Shown here one piece after another: positions 2,818 to 5,255 of a stretch of DNA of 33,528 bases (position 1 is the first letter of the stretch; each line of letters begins with the position of its first letter). Source of the DNA: Ignavibacteriales bacterium (GTDB lineage: Bacteria > Desulfobacterota_D > UBA1144 > Nemesobacterales > CSP1-2); assembly GCA_050259195.1 (NCBI GenBank), contig JBLNAE010000095.1, positions 1 to 33,528 on the forward strand, in the 5' to 3' direction. The translations under genes and the position numbers were made by a program. The notes beneath the pieces are model-generated. The model did no database searches. It saw only the letters and a program-made list of their open reading frames with translations, and was not told where the DNA came from.

Positions 2818-2852
2818 TTTTTGACCCTCATAAAATTCAAGTTCAAGCCTTG

Positions 2853-3386
2853 CTAATTATTCCGGGACTTAGATGCAATTACTCTATCTATCTTTTCTAT
2901 AGCCTCTGATTTCAATTTCACTTTTGTCCGATCAATACGCCCAGAGGATATACTTTCTGCAACTAATTGAATGACGTCTTGAACTTGAATTCGTTCTATC
3001 TCCGCCTTTGTTTGAATTGCTTTGGCCAATTCTCTGAGTTTAGAAGCTGAAAGCTCTATAAGATCACAATGCCAAGAATTTACTTCCTCATCAGGAGAGG
3101 CCCCCTTTGTCTTTTTACTTTCAACCTTAATACCGATTTCATAGACAATTTGCTGATCAAAGAGAGCATAATCAAAATTGGAATTATCAGTTACATTAGC
3201 TGCTAGAGCAGCTATGGTGCGTTCTAAATTTGATCTATCGTCCTCTATGTGCCATACGGAAAGTTGGTTGCTTGATGTTAAGAGATCTCTTAAAGCATCA
3301 GCTTGTAATTCACCTTCTGCAAGCCAAGGAACATCATTATGTCTGTACCATTTTGACTTTCTTATCTTCCTTAGGAAGAATGGCAC
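2853..3386 (-). CDS. Hypothetical protein, putative ADP-ribosyltransferase-like toxin (cassette gene C)
   Basis: 177 aa ORF overlapping the upstream gene by 16 nt. N-terminal hydrophobic strand ending in Arg (FFLRK), then LSVW and a later WHCDL strand. The ORF is solid; the function is inferred. Confidence 0.5.
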   Translation of the reverse strand: MPFFLRKIRKSKWYRHNDVPWLAEGELQADALRDLLTSSNQLSVWHIEDDRSNLERTIAALAANVTDNSNFDYALFDQQIVYEIGIKVESKKTKGASPDEEVNSWHCDLIELSASKLRELAKAIQTKAEIERIQVQDVIQLVAESISSGRIDRTKVKLKSEAIEKIDRVIASKSRNN

Positions 3387-4003
3387 TGCTGTGTATTCTC
3401 CAAGTGTGCTAATACTTGCTCCATATCTTCGCGTAGTTCTTTACAAGTTTCCCGCTCAATAGCTTGCTTGAGATAAGATATGGCATGAGGATCATTTAAG
3501 AATGATAAACCTAACACAGCGCCATCTCGTATTCGTACTGAAGAACAATAAAGGCTTCGCTCAAGTACCCATAATCGGTAACGATAGGTTTTAGGATGAT
3601 CCACATGTCCCAGCCAACGTAATGCCTCAGACGCAACCTCAGCATTAACCTGATCAGTGACGATAAGATTAGCTATTACTATCATGGCATCATTGCCATA
3701 TTCTTTAATGATCGAGATAAGTTCTCTTGAGAATTCACTCTCCATACCATCTTCAAAAATCTGCTCTTTAGCTATTTCAAATAAACCTTCAATTTCTTGG
3801 TCGATCTCCTCCGGAGGTTCTTTCTGTACAGTAGAATTCTCAGAATATTCTTCTCGAGAGTCTATAGTCACAGATTTAGTGAACCAAAGTTGCACTCTAT
3901 TCTTCCAAGATTCTGGATCAGTTGTAGCAAGTGTGTTAAGCCAATTTCCATACTGTGAGAAGTTCTTTTCAAGTTTCACATCACCACCAGTGAGTGCACT
4001 CAT
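3371..4003 (-). CDS. Hypothetical protein with C-terminal HEAT-repeat-like helices (cassette gene B)
   Basis: 210 aa with an acidic, polar N-terminal half. C-terminal VASEALRWLG, VRIRDGAVLGLSFLNDPHAISYLKQAIERE resembles PBS-lyase HEAT repeats. ATGA overlap with the upstream gene. Confidence 0.6.
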   Translation of the reverse strand: MSALTGGDVKLEKNFSQYGNWLNTLATTDPESWKNRVQLWFTKSVTIDSREEYSENSTVQKEPPEEIDQEIEGLFEIAKEQIFEDGMESEFSRELISIIKEYGNDAMIVIANLIVTDQVNAEVASEALRWLGHVDHPKTYRYRLWVLERSLYCSSVRIRDGAVLGLSFLNDPHAISYLKQAIERETCKELREDMEQVLAHLENTQQCHSS

Positions 4004-4785
4004 GGAATGTCCCCCTTTATAGCAATTTCCCTTCCGAGATTAACTAGCTCTTGAAAGATTCGTGGTAGTTGTTCTCGATGCAGTTCGCCTTGGAAGTCCG
4101 GCGAAGTGTTAATGTCTAATTCTAAACGGCAAGCAAAATATTCCGGGCCTAGAAAATACCCCACGGGTGCTGCCGGCCCCAAGGAAATTTGGGTACTTCT
4201 CCAGGAAGCTACAGACCACTTAGAAAAGCGATTTATTCTCAGGCCAGTAATACCAGAAGTAGAGTTCCGAGGTCGATTGATTTGATAGGCAAAGTCGGAG
4301 GATGATCCATCTGGATCCAATTTAACAGAGGGAAGATATTCAGCGATTCTTCGATAGCCATCTTGTCTATCCTCCACAGGTTGCAACAAAATAGCCCCAA
4401 AAGCTAGACGTTGTACTGGAGGACATGTATCGAATTCAAACCAGCGGAGCATTAATGAAAGAAACCTATCAAGTGCCTCGGAGAATGTCCCAATTATGGG
4501 AACATTCGTATCTTCCCGTTTCGGGTCAATAATTGGAGTGAATAACCAATCTACTCGAGTTGGTTGGACACTCACAACTAACTTTCCTTGTGCGAACGGA
4601 CCTTCCTCTTGATGTATTCCTTCTTTCGGACGCGATATTTTGTTTTCTGGGGGTTCTCCAACTATATCAGCCCACCAAGTAGGGTTAACAATCCGAGCAC
4701 TTGGACTAGGAAAAGCTGTCAGTCTAAGGGTTTCCGTCTGCCATACTGTGAGAGAGGAATTATCAGCAATGGTTTGCCGAGACAT
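4000..4785 (-). CDS. Hypothetical protein, TIGR04255-like (cassette gene A)
   Basis: 261 aa with GAGGTG RBS. VQRLAFG in the middle and LELDINT near the C-terminus resemble the I.R.G.RY and LD.D patterns I recall for TIGR04255 proteins. Confidence 0.5.
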   Translation of the reverse strand: MSRQTIADNSSLTVWQTETLRLTAFPSPSARIVNPTWWADIVGEPPENKISRPKEGIHQEEGPFAQGKLVVSVQPTRVDWLFTPIIDPKREDTNVPIIGTFSEALDRFLSLMLRWFEFDTCPPVQRLAFGAILLQPVEDRQDGYRRIAEYLPSVKLDPDGSSSDFAYQINRPRNSTSGITGLRINRFSKWSVASWRSTQISLGPAAPVGYFLGPEYFACRLELDINTSPDFQGELHREQLPRIFQELVNLGREIAIKGDIP

Positions 4786-4846
4786 ATAGTCACCTCGGTA
4801 GAGAATAAAAATTCGATTTCAATATACTACTTGATGTTACGAAGTA

Positions 4847-4875
4847 AGGGTAATACAGCATAGATTGGATTTCAA
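4847..4875 (-). promoter_or_regulatory. Putative sigma70 promoter of the three-gene cassette
   Basis: Minus strand reads TTGAAA-17 nt-TACCCT about 60 nt upstream of ATG 4785. Confidence 0.35.
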
Positions 4876-4883
4876 GCGGTAGA

Positions 4884-5255
4884 CTACTCCAACTCCATCA
4901 AAACCTCATCAATCGTTGGAACTCTGCCCGTGCCTATTAGTTTTCCATTTACAATCACCACAGGCACAGGAAACCAGAAAAACACCGTTCGGATAGCAGA
5001 AAATATAGAAGGGTTAAATTTCAAGACATCCTTTAAAACCTTGGGTATTAAATAGAAATAGGCTCTTGGCTCAATCTGTATAATCTCAACTCCGTCGTCT
5101 CCAAATCTTTCCCGGATTTCTCTATGGAGCCTTCCGCATTCCTCGGCTACCTTTCTAATCCCATCATAAGAATGGTCTTTTTTCGCAAACTCCCCCATTC
5201 CGCCTGAACAGCAGATACAGCCGCCTGTACCATCATTCTCTCTTACGATTATCAC
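4884..5255 (-). CDS. Small CstA-associated protein with CxCC motif, possibly thioredoxin-like fold
   Basis: Starts 10 nt after the cstA stop. GGCICCSGG near the N-terminus and PVVIVNGKLIG.GRVP at the C-terminus, as in thioredoxin-like/ArsD-like proteins. Confidence 0.6.
   Translation of the reverse strand: MIIVRENDGTGGCICCSGGMGEFAKKDHSYDGIRKVAEECGRLHREIRERFGDDGVEIIQIEPRAYFYLIPKVLKDVLKFNPSIFSAIRTVFFWFPVPVVIVNGKLIGTGRVPTIDEVLMELE

Follow-up and report, generated by a model that had tools for sequence, protein, structure and literature searches.

A translationally coupled three-gene cassette between lipA and cstA with features of a three-part toxin–antitoxin-type module

A coupled gene cassette at the lipA–cstA site

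The stretch of DNA analysed here, 33,528 nucleotides of contig JBLNAE010000095.1 from an Ignavibacteriales bacterium (hereafter the window), carries between lipA and the cstA operon a cassette of three hypothetical genes, here termed A, B and C, which is probably a three-part module of the toxin–antitoxin (TA) type. All three genes lie on the minus strand. Gene A (positions 4000–4785; 261 amino acids (aa), ATG start) is the head of the cassette, followed by gene B (3371–4003; 210 aa, ATG start) in the antitoxin position and gene C (2853–3386; 177 aa, GTG start) in the toxin position. The genes are translationally coupled, with an ATGA overlap at the A/B junction (4000–4003) and a 16-nt overlap at the B/C junction (3371–3386). 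An initial annotation of the locus had described three minus-strand open reading frames (ORFs) of these lengths and both overlaps, and they are present as described. Its placement of the cassette agrees with the family matches of the flanking genes, lipA (Radical_SAM and LIAS_N) on one side and cstA (CstA, E 1.5e-211), in an operon with a conserved 123-aa ORF, on the other.

Each start codon is preceded by a Shine-Dalgarno-like site. For A it is GAGGTG, 5 nt upstream of the ATG and within the upstream spacer of the cassette (4786–4883, minus strand); for B it is AAGGGGG, and for C it is GGAGAA. The GTG start of C is supported by the homologues of C, which begin M/VPFFLRK. A sigma-70 scan yielded 6 sites, against 5.8 ± 2.6 in shuffled sequences, with none on the minus strand of 4786–4883. 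Of the candidate promoter and ribosome-binding site previously proposed for the cassette, the latter is borne out, whereas the former could not be verified. Ten RNA-library contigs of 151–329 nt, from 4 runs of 3 studies, correspond to parts of A, B and C with at most 2 other letters each; such contigs do not prove transcription. The GC content is 0.37–0.41 over positions 2851–3900, versus 0.44–0.46 in A and 0.43–0.51 in lipA and cstA, in line with the earlier remark that B and C are richer in AT than their neighbours.

Comparison with related genomes revealed that the cassette is an insertion. A was found in none of the 40 relatives searched and is hence not a core gene. In two genomes of the same genus (G001 and G002), the cassette is missing, and lipA and the 123-aa ORF lie 250–300 bp apart, compared with 2078 bp here. 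Homology to G001 and G002 ends at window positions 2805/2816 and restarts at 4882/4884, so that the segment missing from both genomes spans 2818–4881 (no strand assigned); the cassette DNA amounts to about 2.07 kb. The empty lipA–cstA site for which the initial annotation had proposed to look therefore exists in both. The spacer of G001 (L082:3808-4041) holds an intact DUF2283 gene of 77 aa (Pfam E 1.9e-10), and that of G002 (L083:1319-1481) holds a DUF2283 gene split over two frames, a frameshifted remnant. Given the DUF2283 gene in the otherwise empty spacer, a different small accessory gene either was replaced by the cassette or alternates with it at this site.

Other members of the same family carry different cassettes at this site. 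In G003 (L090) and G008 (L091), a cassette of a TIGR04255 gene, a middle gene and a HEPN-like gene directly follows the 123-aa ORF and cstA. A cassette of the same kind stands beside lipA in G006 (L093), where a PIN/antitoxin-like pair, recognized by eye, adjoins it. The lipA–cstA site is thus a hot spot occupied by alternative cassettes.

A constant head and exchangeable partner genes

Gene A has no match among the Pfam, NCBIfam and PADLOC-DB v2 models. A word-indexed search returned at least 755 homologue clusters, all labelled hypothetical, whereas tblastn of A against plasmids and phages gave no match. To survey the gene neighbourhoods, we used one-genome-per-species contigs and took the best 80 of 115 stretches encoding an A relative. 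Judged by record titles, these loci represent a dozen or more groups of phylum rank. The order and strand of A-B-C are kept in 48 of the 80, three have A and B only, and 29 have neither B nor C; the co-occurrence expected of a genuine cassette is accordingly seen across many phyla. Of the 48 complete loci, 39 have A and B overlapping by 4 bases, and five have them overlapping by 1 base.

In the 29 loci without B or C, other coupled genes stand behind A. A TA-toxin domain forms the last gene in 14 of them: PIN in four loci (21.4–22 bits, just below the Pfam cut-off of 23.6), MazF in three (8e-17), HEPN in five (recognized by Pfam in two and by BLAST cluster in three), RES in one (4e-9) and GNAT in one (1e-9). 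Of the remainder, 11 carry a coupled pair downstream that belongs to no known family, and four are cut off or degenerate. Since the middle and last genes vary behind A, A is the constant part of the cassette, and the two others change together. Comparison of third genes of other kinds (a 131-aa family and singletons) with the C profile by hhalign gave nothing significant, bar a short N-terminal look-alike. Per-class alignments of the middle genes revealed no universal tag.

Two sets of loci in this survey are worth recording. L028 and L030, from Oscillatoria, have A followed by a B homologue and no C homologue, with the B gene shortened in L028; they look like decaying cassettes. In L038, L039, L042 and L054, the middle gene has a DUF5678-like end (a scanned match for L054 only, E 1e-3), and the third gene belongs to a family of 159–166 aa with a faint aspartyl-protease-like match (E 0.0055), which may represent a further toxin type.

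The initial annotation had called A TIGR04255-like, after a family that NCBIfam names sporadically distributed protein. Against the TIGR04255 model (curated cut-off 30 bits), A gave no match at E≤1, and the source genome has 0 matches. In sequence, A lacks both a model score and profile–profile similarity to this family. The likeness lies instead in length, in a predicted fold that appears similar, and in the position as first gene of a coupled three-gene cassette, together with shared B and C partner families and a shared chromosomal hot spot. In the ESM Atlas, the model of A matches that of a cluster named TIGR04255 family protein over 188 residues, with template modelling (TM) scores of 0.59/0.72. 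The earlier label is therefore favoured by the predicted fold and upheld by gene context, and contradicted by the family model and by profile comparison.

Among 120 genomes of the phylum, 27–28 contain true TIGR04255 genes, and such a gene heads a coupled three-gene layout in 18 of the 20 loci examined. The third genes behind these heads are HEPN-like in three loci, C homologues in four, members of the 131-aa family in eight, DUF7689 in two and of another kind in one. The match of the C homologues to C reaches 99.4% in hhalign (E 8e-22). Furthermore, in two of the four C-type TIGR04255 cassettes, L094 and L108, the only two compared, the middle gene falls into a cluster with B. The presence of the B–C pair behind both kinds of head argues that A and the TIGR04255 heads do the same job.

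Gene B, the predicted A–B complex and the fold of C

The product of gene B consists of a variable polar N-terminus, a linker with a conserved ENST motif and a probable HEAT-repeat domain. HEAT_2 (PF13646) scores 25.6 bits on B (E 1.5e-5), below the gathering cut-off of 27.7 bits, and PF13646 is precomputed for most of the B homologues listed. These results are in keeping with the polar N-terminus and HEAT-like helices noted in the initial annotation. PADLOC-DB v2 gave a weak HEAT-ARM match only. The word-indexed search found 198 homologue clusters of B, labelled hypothetical. The linker motif corresponds to residues 54–60 of B, SENSTVQ (3824–3844, minus strand), in which position 58 is Thr in 27 and position 57 is Ser in 22 of 31 sequences.

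The AlphaFold2 model of A (predicted local distance difference test, pLDDT, 86) is a duplicated alpha+beta sandwich. Its best fold matches in the Protein Data Bank (PDB), with Z values of 5–7.8, are AdoMetDC, guanidino kinases, McsB and proteins resembling the TATA-box-binding protein (TBP), none of which is decisive. For A, Foldseek brought up AdoMetDC only, at a TM score of 0.3. Profile searches of A and C against the sequences of the PDB returned chance-level rows only.

Complex prediction placed B on A with an ipSAE of 0.64 (0.66, 0.60 and 0.64 in three runs), whereas the best control reached 0.02. Of 80 solved complexes, 58 attain a value of 0.64, as do 2 of 110 mismatched pairs; these counts apply only roughly here because custom alignments served as input. 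At least 36% of the contacts agree between the runs, and the partner pLDDT is at least 72. In the predicted interface, residues 54–60 and HEAT residues 104–173 of B pack against mostly invariant residues of A, and the contacts of lowest predicted error are those of Thr58 of B with Thr23, Ala128, Asp224 and Asn226 of A. Many of the polar residues of A around the predicted Thr58 site are invariant; this set comprises Arg21, Thr23, Arg77, Asp79, Arg126, Asn170, Arg171, Asn185, Arg186, Glu222, Asp224, Asn226 and Thr227. Of the 23 interface residues of A, 15 are at least 90% conserved, compared with 62 of 261 overall (hypergeometric p 1e-5). The prediction, of the kind that the initial annotation had suggested for this pair, supports the binding of B by A rather than demonstrating it.

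Gene C has no match in Pfam, NCBIfam or PADLOC-DB v2, the DarT and RES models included. Its homologues, labelled hypothetical, form 78 clusters in the word-indexed search and 2926 cluster representatives in a full profile search. In the AlphaFold2 model (pLDDT 93), residues 1 to about 138 resemble the ADP-ribosyltransferase (ART) superfamily and are followed by a C-terminal helical tail. The closest folds are Tpt1/KptA, with Z values of 5.9–6.1 and root-mean-square deviations (rmsd) of 2.8–3.6 Å over 83–92 aligned residues; of Tpt1, C covers the NAD-binding lobe only (chain residues 91–183). DarT follows with a Z value of 4.9, and the row after it has 3.6. In a wide structure search independent of Foldseek, 10 of the 22 top chains belong to the ART superfamily (Tpt1, Tse2, RES toxins, AvrPphF, DarT and Tne2). 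In the ESM Atlas, C matches NarE and DUF952 with TM scores of 0.42–0.64. Foldseek itself returned nothing for C at E≤0.001. Taken as they stand, the fold scores of C are modest to weak yet consistent with the ART superfamily. The catalytic triads of ARTs are R-S-E or H-Y-E. Among 32 close homologues of C, Arg6 is at least 90% conserved, and Ser43 and Glu111 are invariant, an order that fits R-S-E.

Relatives of C were also observed on mobile elements. In a mobilizable Acinetobacter plasmid of 7.5 kb (L111:2244-4046), a C homologue (hhalign 98.9%) closes a row of three neighbouring hypothetical genes, and in the temperate Acinetobacter phage Ab105-1phi (L112:1156-3094), another is the third gene of a cassette near the phage end. 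Gaps of 6–10 nt separate the genes in the phage, and those of the plasmid overlap or lie 2 nt apart. In both cassettes, neither the head nor the middle gene could be linked significantly by sequence to A, B or TIGR04255, and the two heads resemble each other only weakly. By eye, R-[ILV]-[GAS]-[LF] and D-x-N-T motifs seem common to A and the Acinetobacter heads. On ColE1-like Enterobacter plasmids of 5 kb (L110:533-1733), a relative of C (tblastn E 2e-5) follows a single hypothetical gene of 213 aa, with no annotated head; this pair is a possible two-gene version of the module.

Proposed action, competing explanations and known systems

Adjacent overlapping genes and a patchy, mobile distribution, by which type II TA systems are recognized, are both found here, in the layout of the cassette, its absence from the 40 relatives, the empty sites, and the relatives of C on plasmids and in a prophage. 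We consider it probable that A-B-C is a horizontally acquired three-part TA-type module, in which C is the effector, B is the antidote and A is a constant partner that grips the antitoxin. The interpretation offered by the initial annotation is thus supported within the reach of computation. Since A-type and TIGR04255 heads stand before many unrelated antitoxin–toxin pairs, A is read as a generic control element. In the putative model, C would most likely arrest growth through NAD-dependent modification of nucleic acid, and the HEAT-repeat domain of B would be expected to cover C. The invariant polar pocket of A would take up Ser57-Thr58 of the B linker, with the HEAT face gripped as well, and A would thereby hold or stabilize the antitoxin, as a SecB-like chaperone does in toxin–antitoxin–chaperone (TAC) systems. 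A would also be the likely site of the trigger, for example a phage protein; once the A–B grip is lost, B would be degraded and C set free. Gene order, translational coupling, the exchange of toxins, the insertion, the fold likeness and the predicted A–B interface are results of the computation, whereas the toxicity of C, its neutralization by B, the lability of B, the trigger and an antiphage role are inferred.

Several results weigh against this proposal. For gene A, neither Pfam nor NCBIfam gives a SecB family match, and no SecB is present among the fold matches listed. By hhalign, A (A1) aligned to 15 true TIGR04255 members with a probability of 0.4%, and of at most 0.7% when 81 A-type heads were used. 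The conservation of the predicted interface is tied to the model, since the alignments were themselves its input. A de novo motif search in 22 middle-gene clusters gave z values of 2.7 (width 6) and 0.4 (width 8), not above shuffled sequences. For C, the Z values of the fold matches are all below 8 and modest, in a range that, as the tool warns, may reflect a common arrangement only. In addition, the TIGR04255-linked and plasmid subfamilies have Arg or Lys at the position of the candidate catalytic Glu111, so that only Arg6, Ser43, His106 and Asp108 are common to all, and a classic R-S-E site in C is therefore doubtful. The ART fold that the initial annotation had proposed for C is thus favoured by the matches to Tpt1/KptA and DarT and by the share of ART-superfamily chains in the structure search, and is called into question by a candidate catalytic Glu that the sister subfamilies do not keep. 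The enrichment in defence islands that had been envisaged did not emerge either: a TA, restriction or mobile-element neighbour is present in 6 of 15 loci, and the neighbourhoods are mostly housekeeping, giving no clear defence-island signal. Such surroundings fit solitary TA insertions better than defence islands.

The pocket of A lends itself to a second explanation, namely that A is an enzyme that modifies or cuts B at Ser57-Thr58, for instance by phosphorylation, nucleotidylation or regulated cleavage, and thereby switches the module. The many invariant polar residues around the predicted Thr58 site would suit an active centre. Moreover, guanidino kinases and McsB are weak full-length fold matches of A (Z 5.2–6.5 over 161–172 residues), accompanied by glutamine synthetase catalytic domains (Z 5.0–5.3) and the self-processing AdoMetDC (Z 6.9–7.8). 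However, the tool notes that Z values in this range are common for models without a true match, and neither family scans nor the profile search against PDB sequences detected a nucleotide-binding motif or family in A. An invariant pocket suits tight recognition of an invariant tag equally well. We thus regard an enzymatic role of A as unlikely, though it is the best of the alternatives.

In the omega-epsilon-zeta and paaR-paaA-parE operons, the first gene encodes a transcriptional autoregulator. By analogy, A, also a first gene, could regulate its own operon by binding DNA via a TBP-like sheet, the more so as no DNA-binding domain is seen in B and several other middle genes, and Foldseek lists TATA-box-binding proteins for A with a probability of 0.4–0.8. 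Superposition on TBP, however, gives TM scores of 0.19–0.33 with an rmsd above 12 Å, and a peptide of B is the predicted occupant of the conserved pocket, although autoregulation would be compatible with B binding. No operator repeats were found either, though no search was aimed at them. This role appears more doubtful still than that of an enzyme. It is highly improbable that the operon instead serves the cell in NAD processing, RNA-end processing or repair, with a Tpt1-like enzyme at its centre, as the nearest folds of C, RNA 2'-phosphotransferases, might suggest, given that C matches the NAD-binding lobe of Tpt1 only (91–183), that its slot is held by PIN, MazF, HEPN, RES or GNAT toxins in sister cassettes, that its relatives reside on small plasmids and in a prophage, that A, found in 0 of 40 relatives, is patchily spread, and that the cassette is inserted at a hot spot.

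The preferred reading, in which A grips the antitoxin B, was then set against known systems. On the best reading, the logic of the module would be like that of the chaperone-controlled TAC and CmdTAC systems, whereas its parts are new and unrelated to theirs. In HigBAC and M. tuberculosis TAC, the TAC systems whose chaperone is SecB-like, the constant third protein binds the antitoxin and not the toxin. The cassette shares with them the three genes, the constant third protein, here predicted to bind the antitoxin as well, and the exchangeable toxin–antitoxin pair. It differs in that A is not SecB-like in sequence or fold and comes first in the operon, and in that A is predicted to contact B at a Ser-Thr motif on the N-terminal side of the HEAT domain, rather than at a C-terminal aromatic ChAD tail as in TAC antitoxins. 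The C-terminal tail of B lies outside the predicted A–B interface, so that the model offers no counterpart of a ChAD extension.

As proposed for the cassette, CmdTAC sets a toxin of the ART type beside an antitoxin and a further protein. In CmdTAC, loss of that further protein destabilizes the antitoxin (PMC11618068; 10.1101/2024.02.24.581848). Here, in contrast, the gene order is reversed, and C, of about 140 residues plus a helical tail, is nearest to Tpt1 and DarT. No match to CmdT, CmdA or CmdC was found among A, B and C in PADLOC or Pfam, in agreement with the view of the initial annotation that both order and components depart from CmdTAC. The two-gene systems DarTG (for DarT, PMC8501950) and RES-Xre resemble the proposed module in placing a small ART-fold toxin beside a dedicated antidote, and DarT and RES are among the fold matches of C. 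Unlike the macrodomain or Xre/DUF2384 antidotes of those systems, the antidote here would be a HEAT-repeat protein, and a third gene is present. Panacea (DUF4065), termed a hyperpromiscuous antitoxin domain (PMC8832971), is similar in that a single conserved module occurs with many toxin families unrelated to one another. Panacea, however, is itself the antitoxin of two-gene systems, whereas the promiscuous part here stands apart as a third protein, and every toxin has a middle gene of its own.

No publication was found on TIGR04255, DUF7689, DUF6098, CHP04255 or IPR026349, and text searches covering tripartite TA systems, HEAT with ART and KptA with DarT, supplements aside, brought to light no account of cassettes with A-type or TIGR04255-type heads. 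Passages of PMC2701414 and PMC11833690 have no bearing on the cassette. As nothing in PADLOC, Pfam or NCBIfam matches the combination either, the earlier statement that it corresponds to no named system stands. A broader proposal, which we put forward only tentatively, is that A-type and TIGR04255-type heads together mark a very large unrecognized class of three-gene conflict modules parallel to the SecB-based TAC systems. One universal head would there serve at least 10 toxin families, acting on a Ser-Thr tag of the antitoxin, possibly by catalysis, and sensing infection.

If the proposed module is real, the hypothetical A family and the unannotated TIGR04255 family would gain a role as the constant control element of modular TA or defence cassettes. 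Likewise, C, with its 2926 cluster representatives, would found a new family of small ART-like toxins, with a HEAT-repeat protein as antidote. The predicted fit of the ENST tag of B into the pocket of A could further show how a trigger is sensed in three-part systems without a SecB chaperone.

Beside the cassette, the 123-aa ORF (window positions 4884–5255, minus strand) lies directly downstream of cstA and contains a GGCICCSGG motif. Its sole family match is a weak one to Thioredoxin_3 (E 0.024), and it adjoins cstA in all four relatives examined.

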